Translations under genes and position numbers: made by a program
Notes under the pieces: model-generated
The model's input: the letters and a program-made list of their open reading frames with translations, nothing else
Database searches by the model: none
What the model was told of the DNA's origin: nothing
Shown: piece after piece, positions 2,685 to 36,831 of the stretch
How positions within the stretch are numbered: position 1 is the first letter of the stretch
How the letters are laid out: every line of letters begins with the position of its first letter
From: a virus
Lineage: Duplodnaviria > Heunggongvirae > Uroviricota > Caudoviricetes
Strand: one strand, 5' to 3'
DNA: 41,184 nt
Virus record (IMG/VR): IMGVR_UViG_3300045988_018086
Coordinates: 1-41,184 of that record

Positions 2685-2792
2685 TCTTTAATCCTTTGGT
2701 TAAGAGGTTACAGGTTAACGATAAATGCGCCAGACGGGAACCACCCGCTTTTCGTGTGCGACACTAGGCGCAAACTTATTCTATCACATTAC

Positions 2793-2821
2793 TTGCACAC
2801 CCCAATATAATAGGGTACTAT
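2793..2821 (+). promoter_or_regulatory. Sigma70-like promoter TTGCAC-N17-TACTAT overlapping an AATAG-N4-CTATT inverted repeat
   Basis: Hexamers with 17-nt spacing ~15 nt upstream of the 2837 ORF; 30-nt block nearly identical to the one at 13157..13185. Confidence 0.5.
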
Positions 2822-2836
2822 TCACTTACACCAACA

Positions 2837-5247: not shown

Positions 5248-5252
5248 GAAAA

Positions 5253-5270
5253 AGGCCCCAAACGGGGCCT
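5253..5270. terminator. Bidirectional intrinsic terminator hairpin (AGGCCCC-AAAC-GGGGCCT) with flanking T/A runs
   Basis: Perfect 7-bp GC stem, U-run on both strands; lies between convergent genes (kinase and major tail). Confidence 0.6.
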
Positions 5271-5275
5271 TAGTT

Positions 5276-6442
5276 TTATGCGTATGTGATACGCTGAATA
5301 ACAATAGACGACTGGTACTGGTTGCCAGTAGCCTGGCCTTCAATAGACTGAGTGATTGACTCAGGTCCTCCAATCTCAGGTGTAACCGCCGTAAGTTCTG
5401 CACGTTTCAAACTGAAAGACATAGCCCCGTTTACCCCAGCCAGAATAGAGTTAATCTCCACCTGCTGCTCGTTGATAAACTTCTGAATCATCGCCATGTC
5501 GTACAGCTTACCGGAGATGGAGAAGGTGTTAGCTGCTCGGCTACGCTCCACAAACGCTACGTTAGTGTTGCCGAGTTCGAACTGTGCGGACGCGCTGTTG
5601 TCGTTGGTGATGGTCAGGCTGTCGCAACGCAACGGCGTAGAACCGTCGAACACAGAAACATCGACCGAGGAGAATGGCTCGTCACCAAACGTAACAGAGG
5701 AGAAATCAGAACCAGACGGCTGCGTGGTGAGAATCTCCTGACTGCGACCGATGAACGGGAAGCTGCCAGTTACCATAGCGTTAACAGCCTGTTCGATGGT
5801 AAAACCAGAAACTTCCACGCCTTTGGTTAGTGTGTACGCGTCAGTCCCGCCGCACTGGCCTTTGTACCAGGTGAGAATAGAGAACGTCTTGCACTGGCTT
5901 CCCGTTTCCAGTTTATCCCCTGTCTTAGCGGCGGTAGTTACTGTCTCTGTGGTCAGGGTATGCTGGATACCCGCCCCGGTCACTACCAGCGCCTCTACTG
6001 CAGTTACGATAAACGGTTTTGCGTTGTCACCGGTTAAGTCGGTAAACGCAATCAGGTCGCCCACTTCAACGCCGTCAGAAATAAAGCTACCTTCGGCACG
6101 GGTAAAGGTCTTGCCTGCAGGCGCGACGGTAATTGATAGCCCGGTCAGAGAACTACCGGATTGCCATGTAGAGCCTAAAGCTCCCGCCAGCCAGTCGTCC
6201 TGGCTTTTCGAGCTAAGCTCAATAGCGTATTCTCCGCTAACCTGCTTGTTACCGGTGCGGATTGACGTAGTTTCACGGCTGCCGTCCAGTTCGTTGGAGG
6301 TCAGCGTGTCGCGGGTAATGGCAGGAACGCCACCTGTGTTACGCAATGGCGACCAGACCGGGTTAGTCGGTGTTACGCCAGGGGTAGTTTCTGCCACATA
6401 GAATTGCGCAGTATTCGCGCCCTTAAAAGGAGTTGTAGCCAT
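5276..6442 (-). CDS. Major tail protein (likely start ATG at 6442; track start 6448 is GTG)
   Basis: Position upstream of G/GT chaperones; AGAGG RBS before ATG; followed by terminator. Confidence 0.55.
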   Translation of the reverse strand: MATTPFKGANTAQFYVAETTPGVTPTNPVWSPLRNTGGVPAITRDTLTSNELDGSRETTSIRTGNKQVSGEYAIELSSKSQDDWLAGALGSTWQSGSSLTGLSITVAPAGKTFTRAEGSFISDGVEVGDLIAFTDLTGDNAKPFIVTAVEALVVTGAGIQHTLTTETVTTAAKTGDKLETGSQCKTFSILTWYKGQCGGTDAYTLTKGVEVSGFTIEQAVNAMVTGSFPFIGRSQEILTTQPSGSDFSSVTFGDEPFSSVDVSVFDGSTPLRCDSLTITNDNSASAQFELGNTNVAFVERSRAANTFSISGKLYDMAMIQKFINEQQVEINSILAGVNGAMSFSLKRAELTAVTPEIGGPESITQSIEGQATGNQYQSSIVIQRITYA

Positions 6443-9033: not shown

Positions 9034-9060
9034 AAAAGGGGCCGAAGCCCCTTTGTTTTT
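9034..9060. terminator. Intrinsic terminator hairpin (AGGGGC-CGAA-GCCCCT) followed by T-run, downstream of major capsid gene
   Basis: GC stem plus T5/A4 tracts. Confidence 0.55.
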
Positions 9061-9073
9061 ACTACTAACCGTG

Positions 9074-10060
9074 TTACAGGTCTGCGTTGGCGATTGCCAG
9101 AGTACCGAGGGTGTGCTTGTTCTCGGCAACAGCTTTGCCCCAGTTAGCCGCGGTGAACAGTTCTGCGTCCAGCGGAGATTTACCGCCGTTGGTAACGTCC
9201 CAGCTGTAGCCTTTCAGTTTCAGGCCGAAGCTGTAGTCCGCCTGCCAGGTGGTCTGGATGCGGGTGTTACCGTTGCTGGTGTCAATGTTGCTGATAATGT
9301 CAGAAGCATTATCAACGATGATGCCGTTCGCAACTACGGACAGAACCTTAGTCTTGTTCGGAGCACCGGTCTTGTTCGGAGCACCGGCCTCGTACAGCGC
9401 AGGAATGTCAGAGATTACGTAACGCTTGCCGAGAACATCGACAACCATAACGTTACCGGCAACGAACAGCTGGTTCGCGTTGGTCAGCGCTTTATCTACC
9501 AGAGTGTGGTAGGCCGCGCCGGTCATGATGTCAGTGACCAACAACTGAGACTGGTCGCCGAATTTAGCGTGGCTGTTGTTCAGCACGTTCAGGGACAAGC
9601 CAGCGGCCGCGGATACATCGTTAACCAGTGCAGGCTGACCTGATACCGCGGCAACGGCGGCACCAACAGCGGTGTTAAGCTGGTCAGCTAACAGTGCGTC
9701 AGAGAACCCTTCGGAGATAGCACGAATCGCGCTCGCCGGGTCTTCGTTCAGCCAGGTCATTTGCGCAGGCTCGAACAGTACCGGTCCGAAGCCGCCAGCG
9801 ACTTTAACGCCTACACGCTCGCCCTGAGTCAGCGCGGTAGCTGCCTGAGACGCGATAGCGGCGTAACGGTCAACGCGGCGTTTAGCGGAGGCAATCTGGT
9901 TAAAGAAAGACTCACGGGAGAAGTCACCGCGCCATGAAGCGGTAGACAGTACAATTGCGCCACCGGAGGCTGCGTTAAACTGGTCAGTTTTCTGGCCAAG
10001 CAGTTCGATAGTGGTACCGACGATATCGTCGTTATAAACCTTCATATCTGACAGAGACAT
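9074..10060 (-). CDS. Major capsid protein
   Basis: 328 aa, strong RBS, immediately after scaffold gene and followed by terminator (high-expression layout). Confidence 0.7.
   Translation of the reverse strand: MSLSDMKVYNDDIVGTTIELLGQKTDQFNAASGGAIVLSTASWRGDFSRESFFNQIASAKRRVDRYAAIASQAATALTQGERVGVKVAGGFGPVLFEPAQMTWLNEDPASAIRAISEGFSDALLADQLNTAVGAAVAAVSGQPALVNDVSAAAGLSLNVLNNSHAKFGDQSQLLVTDIMTGAAYHTLVDKALTNANQLFVAGNVMVVDVLGKRYVISDIPALYEAGAPNKTGAPNKTKVLSVVANGIIVDNASDIISNIDTSNGNTRIQTTWQADYSFGLKLKGYSWDVTNGGKSPLDAELFTAANWGKAVAENKHTLGTLAIANADL
9351..9386. repeat. Perfect 18-bp tandem duplication (GTCTTGTTCGGAGCACCG x2) inside the major capsid gene
   Basis: Read directly; gives in-frame GAPNKT-GAPNKT in the capsid protein. 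Confidence 0.85.
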
Positions 10061-10066
10061 ATTCTG

Positions 10067-10693
10067 TTATCCTCGTTTGCCGTATTTGGCGTTAAGTTTT
10101 TGCTGGATTACGTCCGCACCACCGGCCCCGCCAGTAGAATTTTTGTTACCGGAAGCCCCGCCGCCGGTTGCTGCATCTGCTTTAATCAGATGCGAAAATG
10201 CTTTGTGCTCACGCAGATACTTTTTAAATTGCTCTGCGTCGGTGGTGATGACATTACCATCTGCACCTGTGAACTTGGTCACAACGTCATCGCCGTCAAA
10301 TTCGGTCTTGACCATCATAGCGATAATATCCGCTGCGCTCTCATCAATCAACATGCCAGACAACTGGCTGATAACTGATTTACGTTCTGCGCCGAGGATA
10401 CGCTCAGCCATTTTGCTAATCTTACCGTCTTTCTCGGCGAGTACTGGCTCATACTGACTGCGCAACGTTTTCTCGAATGCCTCAAGTTCGCCGTTCTGTT
10501 TTGCGCGTTCCTGTTCGGCTTTCAGCTTCGCATCTGCGGCTTCTTTCGCAGCAGCGGCAGCAGCTTTCTTTTCAGACAAGAGCTTCTCGTTGTTAGCTTT
10601 AAGACCGGATACCAGCGCGTCAACTTCTTCTTTGGTAAACGTGGTCTTAGTCTCTTGTTGTTCGATAGTTTCGTCTTTCACTTCTTCGCTCAT
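10067..10693 (-). CDS. Scaffolding protein (start at internal ATG 10693)
   Basis: Acidic N-terminus, Ala/Lys/Glu-rich coiled-coil region, located directly upstream of major capsid gene; AGGGGA RBS. Confidence 0.6.
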   Translation of the reverse strand: MSEEVKDETIEQQETKTTFTKEEVDALVSGLKANNEKLLSEKKAAAAAAKEAADAKLKAEQERAKQNGELEAFEKTLRSQYEPVLAEKDGKISKMAERILGAERKSVISQLSGMLIDESAADIIAMMVKTEFDGDDVVTKFTGADGNVITTDAEQFKKYLREHKAFSHLIKADAATGGGASGNKNSTGGAGGADVIQQKLNAKYGKRG

Positions 10694-10772
10694 CAGTATG
10701 TCCCCTGGACGTTGGAATCCGGGCCACCCGGATTTACATGTCAAGAATAAATTATTCCAACATACAAGGCAA

Positions 10773-11036: not shown

Positions 11037-11268
11037 GGGTGATTACCTCTGATTTCGTCTTGCCTTCGTTATCAGCGGCGGCGGCCTTCGATTCATCCTG
11101 CTGCTGCCGTTGTGTTTTCTTAGCTAACTCAGCCTGTGCTTTCTGCTGTTGCTGCGAAACGAGATTCGCCCGGCCTCCGTTCCAGCCGCTGCGATACTGG
11201 TAGATGCCGTGTGCGTAAGCCAGGATGATGAAACATGCTCCCGCTACGACAGTTGCTTTAAGATTCAT
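10882..11268 (-). CDS. Inner-membrane spanin (Rz-like)
   Basis: N-terminal transmembrane segment followed by Gln/Ala/Lys-rich helical periplasmic domain; AAAGGGGA RBS. Confidence 0.65.
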   Translation of the reverse strand: MNLKATVVAGACFIILAYAHGIYQYRSGWNGGRANLVSQQQQKAQAELAKKTQRQQQDESKAAAADNEGKTKSEVITREVVKYIKTPGRSVCTFDPERVQLKSRAVANANSIPGYDDDAATVQTGTAK

Positions 11269-11290
11269 GTTTCCCCTTTCTCGATAAGTA

Positions 11291-11320
11291 AAGCCCCGCC
11301 TTAAAGCGGGGCTTTACTTA
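11291..11320. terminator. Hairpin (AAGCCCCGC-loop-GCGGGGCTT), candidate terminator/attenuator at the end of the conserved leader
   Basis: 9-bp GC-rich stem; moderate U-run on both strands. Confidence 0.4.
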
Positions 11321-11375
11321 TCATTTAAACATAGAAACGGCGTAATCTCAGTAAACCAGTTACTTTTTACACAAG

Positions 11376-11525
11376 CAATAGAGTATGGCCCTTCCGAACG
11401 CGTCAGCGTAACTACACTCAGGACTTACGTCCCGCTCCGTTACCTGCCCGCGCCGCGGTCGCTTGTTCATACTTCACAAGCTCAGGTGGAGCTTAGCACA
11501 TTTTTGGTGAAAAGTCAACTATTCG
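11376..11525 (-). promoter_or_regulatory. Copy A of a ~145-bp conserved element: promoter TTGACT-N17-TGcTAAGCT (minus strand, approx 11518 to 11490) plus conserved transcribed leader
   Basis: Blocks identical or near-identical to 23041..23190 (same orientation); promoter hexamers at same spacing in both. Confidence 0.5.
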
Positions 11526-11582
11526 AATAGTTTATTCCAACATTTACAATTGAGTGGAATAACTGGAATAATCACAGGCACT

Positions 11583-11607
11583 AAAAAGCCCCTTTCGGGG
11601 CTTCAGT
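11583..11607 (-). terminator. Intrinsic terminator (AGCCCC-TTTC-GGGGCT plus T5) after the Ig-like protein gene
   Basis: Stem and U-run on minus strand. Confidence 0.55.
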
Positions 11608-12069
11608 TTATTCTGGCTTAGTAACCTTCGCTGCTTTACTTACGGCCTCTATACCATCGGCATCAGTGACTTTAACGAAGTATTCACCAACTGCGTTAAC
11701 CGTCAGAGACAGAGCCTCTTCCGGGGCGTTTACCACTTCCTTCCCGTCTTTGTACCAGGTCAGCGCATATGGTGCTTTGCCCGCCTTAACTTCGACAGCG
11801 ATATTTGCGCTGCCGTCTGCCAGTTCCGTGTCTTTCGGTTGTACGGAGAAATACACATCACCGGCATCCGCCAGGTACTGAATCTCATAAAGCATACCTG
11901 CCGCTGGCAGCGCAATACCGGTCTTGTCCGCAAACGGCATATCGTCCACTGGTGTTCCGAGTACACTTTCGTCTTCAATAAACACCACGTTCTCGCCAGA
12001 GCCAGACACGCGGGAGTACTGTACTACGCGACGCGAAGGTACGTCGGTTACTTTGAAAAAGCCCATCAT
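11608..12069 (-). CDS. Ig-like domain protein (possible capsid decoration protein)
   Basis: Beta-rich sequence with ALTWYKDG motif typical of bacterial Ig-like domains; position after head morphogenesis gene. Confidence 0.45.
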   Translation of the reverse strand: MMGFFKVTDVPSRRVVQYSRVSGSGENVVFIEDESVLGTPVDDMPFADKTGIALPAAGMLYEIQYLADAGDVYFSVQPKDTELADGSANIAVEVKAGKAPYALTWYKDGKEVVNAPEEALSLTVNAVGEYFVKVTDADGIEAVSKAAKVTKPE

Positions 12070-13112: not shown

Positions 13113-13156
13113 GTGCCCTCCTGTAGTATCACCAGTGTAACGCATAAAAATAATAT

Positions 13157-13185
13157 TTGCAGACACCAATATAATAGGGTACTAT
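13157..13185 (+). promoter_or_regulatory. Promoter TTGCAG-N17-TACTAT with AATAG-N4-CTATT operator, near-identical to 2793..2821
   Basis: Identical 24-nt core CCAATATAATAGGGTACTATTCA; 27 nt upstream of ATG 13213. Confidence 0.5.
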
Positions 13186-13212
13186 TCATTTAACTTAAAC
13201 AGGAGATGCAAA

Positions 13213-13734
13213 ATGGTTACTACAGTAATTACTTTCCCCGCGTATGTAGGGGCGAAAATCTGCAGGGCTAAAAATGACGTACGCTACTACCTGAACGCTT
13301 TTTACATAGACCCTGAAGGGTTGATAGTGTCTACGGACGGTCATAGATTGTTCTGCGACAATGTGAAGACAAACGTTGAAACGGGAGTTCTCATTGACAC
13401 CAAAGGGAGGGAGCCTTCTAAATTTAACTACGCGGAGGTAGACCACGACAACGGCAGCGTTTCTTTCTATGACGATAGTCGTGCGCTTATATGTACACTT
13501 CCGGTGGATGTTGTAGACGGAAAATTTCCTGACTGGCGACGCGTGGCGCGCATTACACCGGATGCCGTCGGTAGCATAGGGTTCACTCTGCGCTATTTGG
13601 CAGACGCGTACAAGATTTCTAAGGCATACAAAAATGAAATTGCTCGTTTCGATTTCCAGGACCAAACCAGAGGATGCAAAATATCGTTTTCAGACACTGC
13701 GTTTATGGTGCTAATGCCCGCAAGATTTAAATAA
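13213..13734 (+). CDS. DnaN (beta sliding clamp)-like protein, truncated: domain II plus C-terminal half of domain III, no domain I
   Basis: Blocks DVRYYLN..TDGHRL, VDGKFPDWRRV and C-terminal MVLMPARF match E. coli DnaN DVRYYLNG..TDGHRL, VDGRFPDYRRV and YVVMPMRL as I recall that sequence; AGGAG RBS; own promoter and terminator. Confidence 0.55.
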   Translation: MVTTVITFPAYVGAKICRAKNDVRYYLNAFYIDPEGLIVSTDGHRLFCDNVKTNVETGVLIDTKGREPSKFNYAEVDHDNGSVSFYDDSRALICTLPVDVVDGKFPDWRRVARITPDAVGSIGFTLRYLADAYKISKAYKNEIARFDFQDQTRGCKISFSDTAFMVLMPARFK

Positions 13735-13738
13735 AACT

Positions 13739-13760
13739 AAGGCCCCATTGCGGGGCCTTT
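13739..13760. terminator. Bidirectional terminator hairpin (AAGGCCCC-ATTG-CGGGGCCTT)
   Basis: GC stem with T-runs on both strands between convergent genes. Confidence 0.55.
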
Positions 13761-13764
13761 TTCT

Positions 13765-15249
13765 TTACTCCTGTTGTTGCTGCGCCGACTGCGGAATTTC
13801 TCCCGCTACCTGAGTAACCGCACCTAACGGCAGTGGTGCGTCCTCAATAGCGTTCTGGATGTCTTCGTCCGTCCAGTCAGTTACGCCCGCCTTACGCAAT
13901 GCCGCGTAATAAGCTGTAGCTGGTAACAGGCCCGCGTTAATATCCGCCATCCACTGCGCGCGGTCCTGAGCGGTCATTGGTTGCAGGAAGAACTCCATGT
14001 TCAGTTTGAACTCAATTTCAGTGCTGTCGCTAATCCCAAGCATACCCGCGACCCAGCGCAACGCATCGGTATACGCCATGCTTACGTTACGTGCGATTGT
14101 TGCCATAACGGACGTATCAGCGCCGCGTTGCAGGCGTGCCGATTCCGCGGTGATTTGCTGCGTCGGGGTAATAAGCTGTGCACCAATCTGGATTGCCTGG
14201 TTCTCTTTATCCAACATGTTCTGCTTGGCTAGGTTGTTCTCACCGGCCTGGACCAGAAACGCATTGCCGCCGTAACCGATGTTATGGCCAGAACGTGACC
14301 CCATACGCACTCCGTGAGGGTTGGCTTCTTTCCATTGTCCCATGCTCATGTTCTCACCGGGGGCGATGAACAGAGTAGGCTGGCCTACGACGAAGCTGGA
14401 CTCCTCATTGTCCGCGCTGTTGCGGAAGTGCCCGATATTAAGTTCAGCCAACGGCAGCAAAGGTGCATCGTCAGGGGTTGAGTCGTTATTTCCCGCGCCG
14501 ATGAACGTGAACGGAATCACCCCGACCGGAATATTACCGAGTTTCGGGAATATTTCGATATAGCCACCTTCCGTCAGTGCACCTTTCTGGTTAAAGCGGT
14601 ACAGACGCTGGCGATACTGGCCTTCGAAAATATCAAGGACTCGGTATTGCTCGCCGTAGTTGGGGCTGAACTCATCCGCGCCATCGGTGTACTCGTATTC
14701 CTCACGCAATACAACCATAACCACACGATTAACAGACCCGACGCGCTGGAGACGCCAGTTGATGATATTCTCTGCGGTGTAGAAAGCGATTGTTGGGTTT
14801 AGTAAACCCTCGTTTTGCTCTGCCATGGTAGCTACTTCTACCGCGGGGGCGTCAACCAGCAAGCCACCGCGACCAACAGCATCAATCTCATACAGAGTAT
14901 CCTGTGCGTGCTGCCACAGGCCAACGCCCGACCCGTCACAGTTAGTGGTCAGGTATTCCATCTGAGACGGAATAATCATCTCTGGGTCTTTGCGCATTAC
15001 GCTGCCGACCATGCCTGAAAGCGTTCGCTTGGTGAAGTTGTAGCAAATTGCCCCCGCTTCGTATTCAGCCTGACGCTGGCGACCGTAAACCGGGTCCGGC
15101 TCGTTCTTACTGACGTCACGTAGATACGATGTCAGGTCGCCAGAAAGCGCATGTCGCACCTTCTGCCACTTAGGGAAATACTCTTCGTACTGGCGGTGGC
15201 GGGTTTTAACGTTCTGCCCTTGCCCTGCGTTAATGTTTGCGGAAACCAT
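13765..15249 (-). CDS. Portal protein
   Basis: 494 aa, immediately downstream of terminase large subunit; AGAGGA RBS. Confidence 0.65.
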   Translation of the reverse strand: MVSANINAGQGQNVKTRHRQYEEYFPKWQKVRHALSGDLTSYLRDVSKNEPDPVYGRQRQAEYEAGAICYNFTKRTLSGMVGSVMRKDPEMIIPSQMEYLTTNCDGSGVGLWQHAQDTLYEIDAVGRGGLLVDAPAVEVATMAEQNEGLLNPTIAFYTAENIINWRLQRVGSVNRVVMVVLREEYEYTDGADEFSPNYGEQYRVLDIFEGQYRQRLYRFNQKGALTEGGYIEIFPKLGNIPVGVIPFTFIGAGNNDSTPDDAPLLPLAELNIGHFRNSADNEESSFVVGQPTLFIAPGENMSMGQWKEANPHGVRMGSRSGHNIGYGGNAFLVQAGENNLAKQNMLDKENQAIQIGAQLITPTQQITAESARLQRGADTSVMATIARNVSMAYTDALRWVAGMLGISDSTEIEFKLNMEFFLQPMTAQDRAQWMADINAGLLPATAYYAALRKAGVTDWTDEDIQNAIEDAPLPLGAVTQVAGEIPQSAQQQQE

Positions 15250-22842: not shown

Positions 22843-22871
22843 ATAGTATCCTATTATGTTGGGGCGTGCAA
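22843..22871 (-). promoter_or_regulatory. Early promoter TTGCAC-N17-TACTAT with AATAG-N4-CTATT operator (minus strand)
   Basis: Hexamers, spacing and operator shared with 2793, 13157 and 21549 promoters. Confidence 0.5.
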
Positions 22872-23040
22872 GAGATTAGTTACGTTGCCGTTGTGATTCT
22901 TTCGTTTCTTAAAGGAGTACGCAACGCAGTGGGTGGGCGTTAGCCCACCCCAGCGGAGTGAAGTACTCTCTACCTCACTCACTCACGGCAACTATAGAAA
23001 CTTTTAATTATCAGTGACTTGGGTATTTAGGCGGGATTAA

Positions 23041-23190
23041 CAATAGACTTTGGCCCTTCCGAAAGCGCCAGCGGAACTACACTCAAGTGCCTAATGGCAC
23101 GCGTTGCGTTCCCTGCCGCTCCGCGGTCGCTTGCGATATCTCACAAGCTCAGTGAAGCTTAGCATATTTTTAAGTAAAAGTCAATACTAG
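23041..23190 (-). promoter_or_regulatory. Copy B of the ~145-bp conserved element: promoter TTGACT-N17-TGcTAAGCT (approx 23184 to 23156, minus strand) plus conserved leader
   Basis: Homologous to 11376..11525 with identical promoter hexamers. Confidence 0.5.
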
Positions 23191-23231: not shown

Positions 23232-23260
23232 TTGCTTTTACAAAGTTACCGCCTTATACT
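23232..23260 (+). promoter_or_regulatory. Plus-strand early promoter TTGCTT-N17-TATACT
   Basis: Hexamers 30 nt upstream of ATG 23290 with AGGAG RBS between. Confidence 0.45.
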
Positions 23261-23289: not shown

Positions 23290-23460
23290 ATGACTATCAA
23301 TGAAGTAGCTGAACGTATTGGGGTGACACGTCAGACAATTAATAACTGGATTAAGAGTGGAAAGTTTCCTGATTGCAGCGTTAAAGTAATGGGTCGCCGG
23401 ATGCCGGGGACATTTGACCGTAATAAAGTTGAAGCGTGGATTAAGGAGAATGTGAAATGA
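23290..23460 (+). CDS. AlpA/MerR-like HTH DNA-binding protein (start at internal ATG; track start 23200 is an alternative start codon)
   Basis: INEVAERIGVTRQTINNWIKSG helix-turn-helix; AGGAG RBS. Confidence 0.5.
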   Translation: MTINEVAERIGVTRQTINNWIKSGKFPDCSVKVMGRRMPGTFDRNKVEAWIKENVK

Positions 23461-26367: not shown

Positions 26368-26387
26368 AATTATTTTAGAAAAGCCCG

Positions 26388-26416
26388 TTGACAAGTGAAT
26401 AGTTCGCTATTATAGT
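26388..26416 (+). promoter_or_regulatory. Promoter TTGACA-N17-TATAGT with AATAG-TTCG-CTATT operator in the spacer
   Basis: Consensus -35, 17-nt spacer, perfect 5-bp inverted repeat. Confidence 0.6.
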
Positions 26417-26447
26417 TAGCCCATACCAAACGAGAGGAGAATAAATA

Positions 26448-27234: not shown

Positions 27235-28481
27235 TTTTAAAAGAACGCGGTGGCAATAACGATGTGCACGCATTACTGTCGCCGTCTGGGGCTAAAAAGT
27301 GGCTGGCGTGCAGTGCATCACTGGCCTGTGAAAAAGATATTCCTAACACGTCAGGTAAAGCCGCGGTATTAGGCACAGCCATGCATACAATAGCCGAGGT
27401 CCATTTAAATCAGTACATCAAAGGCACTGCACTGCCGTTAGATCGTGAAGTTGGTGCTTATGTACTGGACGAGGGCAAAGGCCAGATTAAGGCGCTAATC
27501 AGTCCGATGAAAGGTGCGGTACTGATTACGGCGGACATGATTGAGCAGGTGCGCAAGTACACCGACTACTGCAAAGCGATTATCGATGTGGCGACTTACG
27601 CCAAACTCGAGATGCGTGTCAATCTTACTGAGGTGTTGCATCCGGGGTATGAAGGCGTTGAGACGTTCGGAACTGCTGACCTTGTTGCCGTCCAGGAACT
27701 GGCTAACACCGACGAGCACATGCTTATCATCGGCGACCTGAAAACTGGACGGCATCGTGTCGAAGCGAAAGAAAACAAGCAGCTTATGCTCTATGCTCTC
27801 GGTGTTTACCGCCGGCTCAAGAGACGTTATAACATAACGACTGTTCGTCTGGTCATCTTCCAGCCGTACGCGGGCGGTGCGTCGGAGTGGGACATCTCGG
27901 TTGAAGGCCTGGAACTGTTCGCTAAGTTCGCACAGAAACGGGCACTGTTAGCGCTTGATGCTTATTTCCGTGGAAAGAAGAACCTGAAAGCGTCGGACTT
28001 TAAACCGTCGGTCGATGGTTGCCAGTGGTGCCGGTTCTCTGAACAGTGTGCCGCGCGTACAAAGACGGTTAATTCTGTACTGGCGGAAGAACTTGAAGAC
28101 GACTTTGTGCTGGAACTGACGACGGAGCAACTCGTAGTTGAGTATGAGAAGTTGCCGCTGTTACGCCAGCACATCGACAAGGTTGAGAAAGCGATGACCG
28201 CCGCATTGCATTCCGGTAAGAAAGTTCCTGGGTACAAGCTGGTTGAAGGTAAGATGGGCAACCGTGCGTGGAAAGATGCCGATGCGATTGAAGTGTCACA
28301 CGGCGACATTCTCAAAAAAGAGGTATTGATGACCCCTACGGAGGCAGCAAAAGTTCTTTCGGCGGATGAGATGGCAGCGCTTGAGCCGTTTATTACCCGT
28401 AAGCCAGGCGCACCATGTGTCGCAACGGCAGACGACAAACGTCCTGAGTGGAATCAGGTTAGTGAAGAAGATTTGGAATAA
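27231..28481 (+). CDS. PD-(D/E)XK-family exonuclease (DUF2800/Cas4-RecB-like) with C-terminal Cys cluster; start at ATG 27231
   Basis: N-terminal SPSGAKKWLACSAS motif, GDLKTG...E.K core, C-terminal CQWCRFSEQC. Confidence 0.6.
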   Translation: MILKERGGNNDVHALLSPSGAKKWLACSASLACEKDIPNTSGKAAVLGTAMHTIAEVHLNQYIKGTALPLDREVGAYVLDEGKGQIKALISPMKGAVLITADMIEQVRKYTDYCKAIIDVATYAKLEMRVNLTEVLHPGYEGVETFGTADLVAVQELANTDEHMLIIGDLKTGRHRVEAKENKQLMLYALGVYRRLKRRYNITTVRLVIFQPYAGGASEWDISVEGLELFAKFAQKRALLALDAYFRGKKNLKASDFKPSVDGCQWCRFSEQCAARTKTVNSVLAEELEDDFVLELTTEQLVVEYEKLPLLRQHIDKVEKAMTAALHSGKKVPGYKLVEGKMGNRAWKDADAIEVSHGDILKKEVLMTPTEAAKVLSADEMAALEPFITRKPGAPCVATADDKRPEWNQVSEEDLE

Positions 28482-28485
28482 AGTG

Positions 28486-28514
28486 TTGACACCTGAATAG
28501 TTAGCTATTATAGT
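28486..28514 (+). promoter_or_regulatory. Promoter TTGACA-N17-TATAGT with AATAG-TTAG-CTATT operator in the spacer
   Basis: Near-identical to 26388..26416. Confidence 0.6.
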
Positions 28515-28567
28515 TCTAATCACTGGCCGGGCAGTTCCCGGAGTAAACTGAAAAGCGAGAAATCACG

Positions 28568-31790: not shown

Positions 31791-32071
31791 CCCCGGAAGG
31801 CAAAATACAGAAATACGCAAAAGAGCGATTCGAGGCCATTGGTGGCCTCGTTCGTAAACTTTCCTACGAGGGGCGTTCCGGCGCTCCCGACCTGCTGGTA
31901 ATTCTCCCAGACGGCATAGTCTGGTTTGTCGAGGTGAAGAAAGACGAAAACACGAAGCCAGACCCACACCAGCTACGTGAGCATGAGCGTATGCGCAAAC
32001 GCGGCGCGAATGTTTTTGTCGTTGGTTCGTTTAAACAGGTTGACGACCTAATAGCGAGCTATTATAGTTAA
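31787..32071 (+). CDS. VRR-NUC domain nuclease (PD-(D/E)XK fold)
   Basis: PDLLVILPDG..FVEVK motif. Confidence 0.6.
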   Translation: MTPEGKIQKYAKERFEAIGGLVRKLSYEGRSGAPDLLVILPDGIVWFVEVKKDENTKPDPHQLREHERMRKRGANVFVVGSFKQVDDLIASYYS

Positions 32072-33714: not shown

Positions 33715-33848
33715 ACATCATGGCCCCGACTCCGGCATTGCAAAAACGTATCAAGGAACTTGAGGAGGAAGTTCTACGGCTACGGCAGCAGAGAGACGCC
33801 GCTAATGCGCAACTGGCGTTTGTACTGGAGAAGTTATCAGAAGAGTAG
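33711..33848 (+). CDS. Small coiled-coil protein (45 aa)
   Basis: ATGA overlap with helicase stop; heptad pattern. Confidence 0.3.
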   Translation: MNIMAPTPALQKRIKELEEEVLRLRQQRDAANAQLAFVLEKLSEE

Positions 33849-33853
33849 AGAAA

Positions 33854-33871
33854 AGGCCCCGTTTGGGGCCT
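33854..33871. terminator. Bidirectional terminator hairpin (AGGCCCC-GTTT-GGGGCCT), near-identical to 5253..5270
   Basis: Same stem as the 5253 terminator; between convergent helicase-region and tailspike genes. Confidence 0.6.
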
Positions 33872-33876
33872 TAGTT

Positions 33877-36831
33877 TTATTTATCTTCTAGTGCTGCCAG
33901 CCTCTTCTCGAACTCGCGCATCTTCTTACGCTGATAGGCAATCTCTATGAAGAACATCTGGTCCGCCCTAACCCCCCATCTGCCGCCGGGAGGGGATACT
34001 TGTACAGTCTGGCCATCTTCATCAATATCATACGCAGCTTCAATTGAGTCGTAGCACAAGAAAGCATATTTACAATCGGTAGAATCTTTCTCCATAAGCC
34101 CATGGTTGACCAAGATGTCTCGCACATCTTGGGCTATCACACCGAAGTGTATCCTTGCAGTGTCACCCTTGATTGCTAGGCTTTCAAGCCACTTAAAAGA
34201 TATTACATGTATATCCTCCCATGCGGTAAGGAGTTGTCCCTCAATTTCCTCTTTGTTCGTCTTAAGTGTACCATCAGACGTGTTTATCGTACCGGTGGTC
34301 GCGTACACCGTAGTCCACCTATTACCTGCCGAACCTAAAGACACTTGCGAGTCTAAGTAAGGAAGAAAATTGTTGTATGAGTAGAAGCCTCCTGACGCAT
34401 ACATAATAGCCCTGTTAGGCGTTGCATGGTTTGCCCCGTACAGTTGCAGCAACGCACCATCGGAACGGGATGCACCATCACCACCGCTAACTATCAGTCT
34501 TTGACCCGATGGGGTTTTAGTGGGGACTGTTTTTGAAATCAGCCCGTAATCACCATCAAACCGTGCGCGCACGGCAGACTGTTGTGTACCATCGTATTCC
34601 AGCCCCGTTACATGCAGGGAGTACACGCTTACATCATTGTCAAACGTTAAAGGTGCTTCTACATGGCGTACACCATCTACCCCCATGGCGACAGGTATTG
34701 TACGGTTAGGAGTTGCTCCGTATTTGAAATCACGTGATACGTACGGGTGGTCTTCAATCTTTATCCGGTAGCTATATAAGTCAGCCGGATGCCCATCATG
34801 TTTGTACCATAACCTCGCACTGTTATCCCCTATGCTCCAGGGAGAGAAGAAGTCTTCCCCACCAAAGATATAGTACAACCAGCCATCTTTAACACAGACC
34901 GAGCCGACGCCGACAGCAGAGTTAACGATATGACCCTGGTATATTTGGTCGGTAATATTAAACCACTGAACATCATCTAAAGATGAAGGCCATGACGACA
35001 CATTAACTTTGCACATAAAGGTCCTCGGATACGAACCTTCATAGCGGCTGTCCTGCTCGCCACCTTCCCACTCACCAAAGGCACGTTCTGTACCAAAGAT
35101 GTAGAGATAGTCACCTACTTTAGCGAACGGAAGATTGGAGTGATGTACATTGTTCGGAAATCGCAAGTAGCTCCAGTTTTGCCCAGAATCGGTGCTCATC
35201 GCCAGTGTAGAGCCAGGGGAAGTAGGTAATGTGTCGCGTGTGGTAAGGTATAACACACCACCATAACTTTTCACGCACGGCTCACAAGCGTTATCAGCGT
35301 ATGCCTGAGCGACAGTGCGACGAACGAATACGCCAGGATTGTCATACACGTTACTAAAATACAAGACACCGAGACGCCTAGGGGGCACATCGCCGTTGTG
35401 ATAGCCGACAGCGATAGTGTAGTTAACATCATCTATAACCGCAAAACTATGTGTCTCCGTGACACACAAATCAGCGTTAGTGGAGTATGCTACCCCAGGC
35501 AATTCGGTAATTTCCCACGGGCTGTCCCAGAATCGCGTTGCGAAGTTCCAGGTAACACCCGCATTGTTTATGGTGGAACTAGCCGGGCTTGAGAGCGTAA
35601 CAGTGAACGTATTTCGGTTAATTATAGACGAAACCTTCATATTACCCGATACGCCAGTTGCCGATGTATTAGAGAAGTTAACCGCATCTCCTGCTTTTAG
35701 GCCATGATTTTCTATGACAATGGTAGCAGTAGTGGAGCCAGAACTAATAGTTATTCCGCCGGTTGGGTGTCTAAAATACGGCATTGGGCGTGACCAAAGT
35801 TCTGCCTTCTTCATCCGCATATTAGATAAGTAGCGGGTTTCTATAACTGCATATAATCGGTTGCCGCACGTACCCATGCTCATGCAGTGGTAGTTAACTC
35901 TGTCCGTAGAAACACTAGCATTATAGTCAGCATGGATTGGAGTCAACCACTCAGGCATTGACCAAGTCTGCCCGTCGTCTCCAGAGCGAACCCAAGCTAC
36001 ATGTAAGTTTTGAACACCATGTCGTTCGCCCGCCATAAACGGGGCGTAAATAACATGGTCGTAGACGAAAGTTTTATCCTGCGTCCATGCGTTGTAGAAC
36101 GGGGTATCCGTCACCTTAGTTAGTGAGCCGTTAAAGAAGCCATCAGCTACATAAGTAAGCGGTTGCCCGGCTACGCGCTCGTAAACGAATGCAGCATTCT
36201 TAAATTTACTAATGTCAGGTAATTGGGAAACTTTATAAGTCAAACCCCTGCCGTCTATAATCCAATTGTTGGGGGAAGCTGCTAATACATTAAAAATAGA
36301 TTGAGTATCATCAGTTACGCCGTCGCCCACGGCGCCCCATGCGCGCGGGTCGTATTCGTCCTTCCATCGCGCCACATGTAAATCTGGGTACAGAATTGCA
36401 CCGTTTACATCAGATATTTGCTGCCGCAGTATGACCGACCCGACAGGCTGCCACGCCCCATCTGCCACGCCACCGGTGGACTGCGGAGAAGATGACGCTG
36501 GGATAATTTTTGGTAGAGCACCCAACCAATAGTACCAATCCCCGTCACCGCCAGAGGACGACGGCCACAAAACTGCGGTGTTTCGGTCGTTAGCGGATAG
36601 TGTACCGCCTGACGTGAAATCAAAATCTGCCAGTTTAAAACCTGCGTCACGCAACACGGCGGGGAGTGTCTTCTGCGTCTGTCCAGTAACCTGATTTGTC
36701 GCGTAATCAATATCGGCACCACCGGCGACACCGCCGGATTTGCCAGTGATAACCTCGGCCTCGAAAATCTGATGTTTCTTGGCGGTTTGTAAATCCGCCA
36801 GGCTTAAAACGTCACCGCATCCGCTTGACAT
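33877..36831 (-). CDS. Tailspike: endosialidase (endo-N-acetylneuraminidase)-like with C-terminal intramolecular chaperone autoproteolysis domain
   Basis: 984 aa; C-terminal TSDGTLKTNKEEI...ISFKWL block typical of the self-cleaving chaperone domain; beta-propeller/beta-helix-like repeats. Confidence 0.7.
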   Translation of the reverse strand: MSSGCGDVLSLADLQTAKKHQIFEAEVITGKSGGVAGGADIDYATNQVTGQTQKTLPAVLRDAGFKLADFDFTSGGTLSANDRNTAVLWPSSSGGDGDWYYWLGALPKIIPASSSPQSTGGVADGAWQPVGSVILRQQISDVNGAILYPDLHVARWKDEYDPRAWGAVGDGVTDDTQSIFNVLAASPNNWIIDGRGLTYKVSQLPDISKFKNAAFVYERVAGQPLTYVADGFFNGSLTKVTDTPFYNAWTQDKTFVYDHVIYAPFMAGERHGVQNLHVAWVRSGDDGQTWSMPEWLTPIHADYNASVSTDRVNYHCMSMGTCGNRLYAVIETRYLSNMRMKKAELWSRPMPYFRHPTGGITISSGSTTATIVIENHGLKAGDAVNFSNTSATGVSGNMKVSSIINRNTFTVTLSSPASSTINNAGVTWNFATRFWDSPWEITELPGVAYSTNADLCVTETHSFAVIDDVNYTIAVGYHNGDVPPRRLGVLYFSNVYDNPGVFVRRTVAQAYADNACEPCVKSYGGVLYLTTRDTLPTSPGSTLAMSTDSGQNWSYLRFPNNVHHSNLPFAKVGDYLYIFGTERAFGEWEGGEQDSRYEGSYPRTFMCKVNVSSWPSSLDDVQWFNITDQIYQGHIVNSAVGVGSVCVKDGWLYYIFGGEDFFSPWSIGDNSARLWYKHDGHPADLYSYRIKIEDHPYVSRDFKYGATPNRTIPVAMGVDGVRHVEAPLTFDNDVSVYSLHVTGLEYDGTQQSAVRARFDGDYGLISKTVPTKTPSGQRLIVSGGDGASRSDGALLQLYGANHATPNRAIMYASGGFYSYNNFLPYLDSQVSLGSAGNRWTTVYATTGTINTSDGTLKTNKEEIEGQLLTAWEDIHVISFKWLESLAIKGDTARIHFGVIAQDVRDILVNHGLMEKDSTDCKYAFLCYDSIEAAYDIDEDGQTVQVSPPGGRWGVRADQMFFIEIAYQRKKMREFEKRLAALEDK

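Follow-up and report, generated by a model that had tools for sequence, protein, structure and literature searches.

What does a phage gain from a promoter fused to a structured leader that it carries twice, once at its divergent early control region and once ahead of its late structural genes? The window analyzed here, a stretch of 41,184 nucleotides, matches genomes of Kagunavirus (Guernseyvirinae siphoviruses of Escherichia coli) at 95% or more and is, judging from these matches, a Kagunavirus genome. A first-pass annotation had described positions 23041..23190 as the second copy (B) of a conserved promoter-plus-leader element, and several lines of evidence bear out the repeat. A repeat search of the window pairs 11376–11420 with 23041–23085 at 89% identity, and pairwise alignment shows that the similarity covers a longer stretch, about 11330–11518 versus 22990–23184 (~190 nt). 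The segments 23184..23041 of copy B and 11518..11376 of copy A, both on the minus strand, are about 80% identical. A covariance model built from 30 variants (R1) recovers copy B at 23023–23158 on the minus strand with 121.5 bits (E = 1e-31) as well as copy A with 154.7 bits. As the next match of R1 has an E-value of only 4.3, we conclude that the window contains exactly two copies. The elements of the cassette are as follows.

23156..23184, minus strand: copy B promoter, with -35 TTGACT (23184..23179), TG (23164..23163), -10 TAAGCT (23161..23156) and a 17-nt spacer
23150..23041, minus strand: conserved copy B RNA core, ~110 nt
23129..23148, minus strand: copy B hairpin P1 (GCUUGU.../...GCAAGC), from minimum-free-energy and consensus folds
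23059..23126, minus strand: copy B long arm P2-P3-P4, from folds and covariation
within 23059..23126, minus strand: copy B P2 (CCG.GGAGC / GCUUU.CGG), with two invariant G·U pairs
within 23059..23126, minus strand: copy B P3 (CAG, GGAAC / GUUCC, CUG), with pairs that change on both sides
within 23059..23126, minus strand: copy B asymmetric, purine-rich internal loop …GAGUGUAG…, opposite …GGAGC…
23100..23087, minus strand: copy B P4 hairpin GUGCC-AUUA-GGCAC, with pairs that change on both sides
23041..23058, minus strand: copy B conserved single-stranded 3' tail AAGGGCCAAAGUCUAUUG, from alignments
22991..23017, minus strand: linker motifs (C)ACUGAUAAUUAAAAGUUUCUAUAGU, common to copy A and the leader of phage K1G
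11490..11518, minus strand: copy A promoter, TTGACT-17-(TGc)TAAGCT
11376..11483, minus strand: copy A RNA core (P1, P2-P4 arm and 3' tail), from the R1 match (154.7 bits) and folding

In annotated relatives, the minus-strand genes run leftward from the divergent control region at about 23 kb in the order small early genes, holin, endolysin, terminase, portal, head morphogenesis and Ig-like protein, and beyond copy A they continue with spanins, scaffold, capsid and head-tail genes up to a terminator at about 5.25 kb. The proposal that one RNA element heads both an early and a late transcription unit agrees with this order, given that the unit also precedes the spanin-scaffold-capsid genes at copy A.

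The predicted copy B transcript starts at about 23150/23149, some 2–3 nt ahead of hairpin P1. We compared the promoter across 66–67 distinct upstream sequences from relatives, in which the -35 hexamer TTGACT is found in 65 of 67, the -10 hexamer TAAGCT in 66 of 66 and a spacer of exactly 17 nt in 66 of 66. The TG is invariant, the third position of the TGn motif being C, A or G, and both the spacer and the discriminator vary in sequence. A variable spacer together with invariant hexamers, TG and spacing is the signature of an extended -10 sigma-70 promoter, and the predicted promoter at both copies is of this class. The exact pattern TTGACT-N14-TGNTAAGCT occurs in the window only at copies A and B. 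A simple consensus scan misses the copy B promoter because TAAGCT matches the consensus at only three of six positions. Thus, the minus-strand promoter that the first-pass annotation had placed at copy B, followed by a GC hairpin and the leftward operon, stands, its -35, -10, TG and 17-nt spacing being essentially invariant. An inverted repeat, AAGCTC-N5-GAGCTT, spans the -10 hexamer and the start site. Upstream of the promoters, a perfect 16-bp palindrome, AACTATTCGAATAGTT, at 11520–11535 on the minus strand abuts the copy A -35 hexamer, and copy B has TACYRGTA where copy A carries this palindrome. The core promoter and the RNA are common to both copies, and the upstream regulation probably is not.

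The RNA that follows the promoter has a fold of its own. An alignment of 43 distinct sequences, drawn from viral and metagenome contigs and public phage records and falling into six core types, supports that all six share a hairpin P1 of 6–8 bp, two unpaired nucleotides and then the P2-P3-internal loop-P4 arm, which comprises about 23 bp with an asymmetric internal loop. Standard pairs make up 95.8% of the pair cells, compared with 28–40% when the 3' partners are slid by 1–3 columns (six core variants), and the covariation score of 0.209 is reached by none of 500 shuffles (0.093 ± 0.006); these pairing statistics overstate independence, as the alignment was fitted to the model and the sequences are related, so that about six lineages are in fact represented. 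In seven pairs both partners have changed, as in C-G/U-A/A-U of P2, where pair 40/110 is seen in all three states, and U-A/A-U/G-C in P3. P4 differs completely in sequence among the six core types and is always a hairpin of 4–6 bp (GGGAC/GUCCU, CGGAC/GUCCG, GUGCC/GGCAC, CACG/CGUG, CACGU/ACGUG and GGUGC/GCACU). The six pairs of P1 are constant save for one U-A/U-G change, and covariation is therefore no test of P1. Single-sequence folding energies are unexceptional, with z from -0.1 to -3.7.

Conservation within the core is concentrated in P1, the junction, the base of P2 and the tail (UUCGGAAGG…CUAUUG), all of which are nearly unvarying, and the positions that never vary are grouped where the two stems meet. 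The tail motifs UUCGGAAGG and CUAUUG are almost invariant in the alignments, in which no pairing partner was found for either. Pairing of the P1 loop (AGUAUG) with the tail (CAUACU) into a pseudoknot was considered and is not supported, given that the tail position involved is free (C, G, A or U) and the loop is constant. With respect to strand, there are 160 G·U cells and 6 A·C cells, two P2 pairs are invariantly G·U and one P4 pair usually so, and pairing falls from 95.8% on the minus strand to 82.9% on the opposite strand. The G·U excess and this drop together indicate that the functional molecule is RNA of the minus strand. Based on these comparisons, copies A and B are a real, previously undescribed structured RNA with its own promoter, copy B being the second instance of a self-contained cassette of promoter and leader RNA.

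Beyond the core, both copies run through a linker, of ~55 nt at copy A and ~90 nt at copy B, into a hairpin. The relevant signals are these.

22931..22951, minus strand: GC hairpin GGGGUGGGC-UAAC-GCCCACCC, between copy B and the class I promoter, without a U-run
22843..22871, minus strand: class I promoter TTGCAC-17-TACTAT of the leftward early operon, from a four-copy repeat family (D4/I1/I3), with palindrome AATAGGATACTATT over the -10
23232..23260, plus strand: proposed plus-strand promoter TTGCTT-17-TATACT, weak and not called by the consensus scan
11284..11320, minus strand: terminator-like hairpin t_A, …AAAGCCCCGC-UUUAAG-GCGGGGCUUU, then ACUUAUCG, ~20 nt before the i-spanin start codon (11268)
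11580..11603, minus strand: strong intrinsic terminator AAGCCCCGAAAGGGGCUUUUU, from repeat family D2, which ends the portal / head-morphogenesis / Ig-like block upstream of the copy A promoter and is an annotated terminator in phage Shashou

The GC hairpin downstream of copy B exists as claimed earlier, with the correction that it lies at 22951..22931 on the minus strand and not at about 22925..22946. Of the two divergent promoters said to flank copy B, the one at 22843..22871 is real as a sequence, and that at 23232..23260 is the weak site listed above, which the scan does not call. Whereas t_A is followed by a U-rich tail, UUUACUUAU, the copy B hairpin of the window has no U-run, which makes its status as a terminator doubtful; it may be no terminator at all. 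In other phages that carry copy B, a different hairpin, GGUGCC-UUCG-GCACC, followed by a U-rich tail, occupies the same place. The stem of t_A is kept by compensatory changes in relatives (CCCCGC/GCGGGG, CCCUGC/GCAGGG and CCCAGC/GCUGGG). After the hairpin, co-directional genes follow at both copies, at copy B by way of the class I promoter and then the early operon. At copy A, no other promoter-like site was found between t_A and the scaffold and capsid genes, and given the terminator at 11603..11580 upstream, capsid expression should come from the copy A promoter across t_A. A further strong terminator lies directly after the capsid gene, at 9054..9035. Between the copy B core and its hairpin there is also a short GTGA/CTCA repeat (22972–22988), the copy number of which varies (contigs L001, L037 and L042).

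The two copies differ in their distribution. Copy A is present in 181 of 181 matching phage records from Kagunavirus and Jerseyvirus, and the copy A region of the window matches Salmonella Jerseyviruses, whereas copy B is present in about 43 records, all of them Kagunavirus-like. The copy A intergenic region (window 11200–11600) is 93–99% identical to that of Salmonella phage ER1, compared with 65–87% for the flanking genes, and over the segment 11400–11499 the identity to a Salmonella Jerseyvirus reaches 99%. This level is kept although the scaffold and capsid genes 3' of copy A are exchangeable modules, the boundary of which copy A adjoins. With filters off, copy A is the sole match of R1 in phage K1G and in the Jerseyvirus ER1. 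At the copy B site, K1G (L055 36680–36900) carries a consensus-like promoter that is unrelated to that of copy B, TTGACA-17-TAAAAT, and another leader, which has hairpins of its own, one of which resembles t_A (AAAGCCCCGC…GCGGGGC); it rejoins the window sequence at ACTGATAATTAAAAGTTTCTATAG, with the same GC hairpin kept. This unrelated leader suggests that the B site behaves as an exchangeable leader cassette. The first-pass annotation would have taken it as counting against its proposal if only one copy were conserved in relatives, or if the similarity stemmed from a recent segmental duplication without expression. As far as conservation is concerned, the former is what we find, with 181 records for A, about 43 for B and replacement of B in K1G. 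A recent neutral duplicate is contradicted by the existence of copy B in at least four core variants, the fold of which is preserved through compensatory changes. On this evidence, copy B is a lineage-restricted second copy that is neither recent nor neutral.

There is also evidence for exchange between the two sites. A natural chimera (L041:2142-2434, compared with L045:1532-1826 and with copy A of the window) combines A-site flanks, that is, the promoter-upstream region, the linker and t_A, with a B-type core, and at some B sites the promoter spacer and the P1 loop are of the A type. We take the chimera as evidence for gene conversion between the two copies, and a B-type core at an A site supports that the cores evidently work in either place. 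This natural exchange fits the earlier idea that the two leaders are interchangeable.

Outside this group of phages, scans of viral, metagenome and genome collections with DNA patterns gave only Guernseyvirinae-like contigs and a few random matches that R1 rejected, and no related sequence was found in E. coli genomes. The only plasmid match, at two places of the E. coli 'plasmid' record CP088689.1 (44,086 bp), is presumably to a Kagunavirus genome, the size of which the record has, that was deposited as a plasmid. The capsid gene of the window (9074–10744, scaffold and capsid) is common at >90% to only 19 records, K1G-type phages carrying a different one, and the nearest capsid genes outside the subfamily are those of Serratia phage Smarc3 (76% amino acid identity) and of Vibrio phages (~60%). 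R1 has no match in Smarc3. Just upstream of its spanin genes, Smarc3 has another long GC-rich hairpin, GGUUAUGCUCG…CGAGCAUACC (L106 3128–3200), which may be an unrelated structure at an equivalent position.

We find that the element belongs to no described RNA family among those to which it was compared. The whole window has no match in Rfam 15 at the gathering score, and E-value scans of both copies return only sub-threshold matches that are due to chance or driven by the terminator. Rfam holds no model of put, the polymerase-utilization RNA of phage HK022, and its silence is therefore uninformative on that family. When applied to the complete HK022 genome without filters, R1 finds nothing better than E = 5 and nothing at putL (~28240–28312), which argues against homology to put. 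A local resemblance to put (GAGCGCGGCGGG vs GACCGCGGCGCGGG) was taken as chance, as the pairing does not correspond. A boxA (CGCUCUUA-like) with a boxB hairpin bearing a GNRA-like pentaloop is absent from the RNA strand of both copies; the nearest sequence, ACUCCUUUAAGAA, follows the hairpin of copy B, and the other B types have not retained it. Among ten early proteins, a PHROGs search for an N-like antiterminator gave families of unknown function and one HTH/excisionase-like protein, a search that small basic proteins could escape, and the annotation of K1G lists no antiterminator protein. The literature search returned no description of the sequence or of such an element, and the published Kagunavirus transcriptome gives no information on intergenic RNA.

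Several other identities were considered and set aside. In copy A, the AUG of the P1 loop opens a 36-aa frame, which copy B of the window lacks; one-nucleotide indels cut it from 36 codons to 9 in the L043 and L015 types, and published annotations assign the 'hypothetical proteins' of the A site and of the B site to opposite strands. Based on these frame-breaking indels and inconsistent strands, we reject a coding ORF. The string GCGCCAGCGG on the plus strand of copy B, which also occurs in the E. coli type I-E repeat, is no CRISPR-repeat mimic, being absent from copy A and on the wrong strand. Reading of the initial transcribed region reveals no -10-like hexamer consistent between the two copies, as a sigma-dependent pause element would have. 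Sites complementary to the conserved single-stranded motifs are not enriched within the phage genome, as phage targets of an Hfq-type trans-acting small RNA with an exposed seed might be.

How, then, might this RNA act? We favor the hypothesis that it is a cis-acting anti-termination leader, similar in function to put or nut and unrelated to either, and assign to this reading a probability of roughly 0.4. Host sigma-70 RNA polymerase most likely starts at the extended -10 promoter, and the first ~110 nt of the transcript fold into the two adjacent stem-loops, P1 and the long P2-P3-P4 arm. The nascent RNA could then act in cis on its own polymerase, either alone, as does HK022 put, or with a phage or host factor, as does lambda nut, and the modified complex would read through the GC hairpin or terminator after each copy and through later terminators. 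The presumed targets are, for copy B, the hairpin at 22951..22931 and terminators deeper in the leftward operon (early genes, holin, endolysin, terminase and portal), and, for copy A, t_A and the strong terminator after the capsid gene. Promoter conservation, the fold, the strand assignment, the position before hairpins and operons and the exchangeability of the cores are the evidence-based steps of this scheme, from which we infer the interaction with polymerase and the read-through.

One argument for an anti-termination leader is that of layout, in that a promoter, a two-hairpin RNA, a hairpin and a long operon occur in this order twice per genome, as they do for put in HK022. HK022 putL and putR mediate protein-independent processive antitermination in cis, suppressing pausing and termination via the zinc-binding domain of the RNA polymerase beta' subunit. 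In putL there are two adjacent stem-loops, the first duplex starts at about nucleotide 3 of the transcript, and the conserved nucleotides of put are concentrated near the stem junction (PMC9378689). Our element likewise has two adjacent stem-loops, a first duplex from about nucleotide 3 and a conserved junction, and in both phages two related copies each follow a sigma-70 promoter and precede terminators and long operons. There are differences, however. The core of the element is ~110 nt long compared with ~70 nt for put, it invariably comes joined to a promoter of its own, while in HK022 the distance from PR down to putR is 270 nt, and its phage is a virulent siphovirus in which one copy heads late structural genes, whereas HK022 is lambdoid. 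Furthermore, there is no homology in sequence or structure, and the activity of the element is a prediction.

Other known systems resemble the element in part. As in lambda nutL/nutR with N, there are two related sites, here predicted to act as RNA in cis, behind two promoters, and nut licenses read-through of terminators; the element is much larger, however, lacks boxA and a 15-nt hairpin of the boxB type and has no recognized N-like protein. Copy A, as a sigma-70 promoter with a leader of ~190 nt to a terminator directly before lysis and structural genes, recalls the PR'-6S RNA-tR' region of lambda with Q. In that system, Q loading uses DNA sites and a sigma-dependent pause and not a conserved RNA fold, whereas the RNA of the element covaries; additionally, no Q homolog is annotated in K1G and the second copy of the element heads an early operon. 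EAR of the Bacillus eps operon and conAn2 of pLS20 are processive-antitermination leader RNAs (PMC8191782), and they resemble the element in being structured, ~100 nt in size and placed in the 5' leader of long operons that have terminators inside them. The element differs from them in having no match in Rfam, EAR included, a different host group and no known partner protein.

Further observations count for an anti-termination leader: the promoter and the covarying RNA are inherited as one unit, the fold belongs to the strand that leads into the genes behind it, at copy A the unit is shielded from upstream transcription and the capsid genes appear to depend on its promoter, the hairpins after both copies are maintained (A) or replaced by another hairpin (B), the copy A island is more conserved across genera than the genes that flank it, and a B-type core is found at a natural A site. 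On the other side, neither homology to put nor boxA/boxB nor an antiterminator protein was found, the copy B hairpin has no U-run, the single-sequence folding energies are unexceptional, and a leaky t_A would allow capsid expression alone. Additionally, since the same leftward operon runs without copy B in K1G and the Jerseyviruses, the element is dispensable there. A bolder form of the proposal would have the element represent an undescribed class of cis-acting antiterminator RNA, structurally unrelated to put, which virulent Guernseyvirinae siphoviruses use as a portable, promoter-packaged cassette, copied and homogenized between operon heads by gene conversion. Host RNA polymerase would leave the cassette in a termination-resistant state as it enters the capsid operon and, in some lineages, as it enters the leftward early/lysis/packaging operon. 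In this full form the proposal is a tentative one that we regard as less likely than not.

The standard layout of a small-RNA gene is likewise a promoter, a folded RNA and a terminator, which counts against an anti-termination leader; a stand-alone small RNA gene is the main rival. Such a gene would yield a discrete RNA with its 3' end at the hairpin, ~190 nt long for copy A and ~220 nt long for copy B, which would work in trans by pairing with mRNAs of host or phage or by protein binding, with copy B providing an early or extra dose. The conserved promoter of its own, the folded 5' domain, the AU-rich linker and the terminator-like hairpin all suit this, as do the sub-threshold Rfam matches at t_A, which are all to small-RNA or leader terminators. 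So does conservation, in that the whole A unit including the linker is extremely conserved between phages of E. coli and Salmonella, as would be the case with a conserved target, and linker motifs are common to A, B and the K1G leader. However, t_A lies 20 nt before spanin-scaffold-capsid genes that have no other visible promoter, which would make the unit their promoter and leader as well, and the most conserved nucleotides are at a helix junction rather than in an exposed seed. The missing U-tail of the copy B hairpin in the window, the lack of enriched complementary sites elsewhere in the phage genome and the lack of related sequence in E. coli genomes also speak against it. We consider a small RNA acting on its own unlikely; small-RNA and leader roles could coexist.

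An element for RNA processing or stability, an option that the first-pass annotation had also raised, appears more improbable still. Here, RNase III would cut the P2-P4 arm, as it does T7 and lambda leaders, and/or P1 would shield the operon mRNA from 5'-end-dependent decay, and it is true that the arm of ~23 bp has an asymmetric internal loop, that P1 begins ~3 nt from the predicted 5' end and that the element heads long polycistronic units. The RNase III hairpins of T7 are similarly repeated two-stem structures with an asymmetric internal loop in early and late transcripts, but they sit between cistrons genome-wide, whereas the element exists in two copies only, both fused to one specific promoter and running from its +1, and has the additional conserved P1, junction and 3' tail; cleavage of the element is hypothetical. 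The invariance of these three parts exceeds the need of a generic double-stranded RNA site or 5' hairpin, and the hairpins that follow would be left unexplained. Least probable, and in our estimate very much so, is an element that acts as DNA (an operator, a replication origin or a recombination linker) or a neutral duplicate without RNA function. The position of copy B in the divergent control region beside replication genes, that of copy A at the boundary of exchangeable head-gene modules and the inverted repeat over the -10 and start site would fit a DNA element, and very high conservation could partly reflect frequent recombination. Nevertheless, the strand asymmetry of the pairing (in percentage and in the ratio of G·U to A·C cells) makes a purely DNA-level role unlikely and, together with the compensatory changes, points to single-stranded RNA from one strand, and the copy B variants diverge widely yet keep the fold, as a neutral duplicate would not.

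In sum, the anatomy that the first-pass annotation proposed is right, and its anti-termination idea is the best hypothesis available. The put RNAs are the only RNA family known to reprogram bacterial RNA polymerase without a dedicated protein factor. If the anti-termination leader is true, a second and unrelated put-like RNA would suggest that this strategy is more general and would provide a new way into the elongation complex. In these phage genomes no stretch is more conserved than copy A, which surpasses even the capsid genes 3' of it, and knowledge of its role is therefore central to understanding how these phages set the timing and dose of late gene expression. The phages that carry the element are now widely isolated for therapy against E. 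coli K1/UPEC and Salmonella. Even if it were a small RNA or a processing site, the element would be an unannotated RNA supported by covariation that spurious 36-aa 'hypothetical proteins' mask in genome records.

The window contains further families of transcription signals. Near-identical GGCCCC/GGGGCC terminators at 5250–5279, 11583–11612, 13728–13773 and 33838–33883, several of them bidirectional, mark the ends of transcription blocks. The class I promoter family, TTGCAC-17-TACTAT, is found at 2790–2828 (plus), 13154–13192 (plus), 21581–21539 (minus) and 22872–22836 (minus), and a class II family, TTGACA-17-TATAGT, at 26374–26417, 28472–28515 and 32026–32069 (all plus). Both classes have an operator-like palindrome, AATAG-N4-CTATT, over the -10, a sign that one repressor may act on both to switch early transcription off, for which the small HTH protein encoded at 23290–23460 is a candidate.
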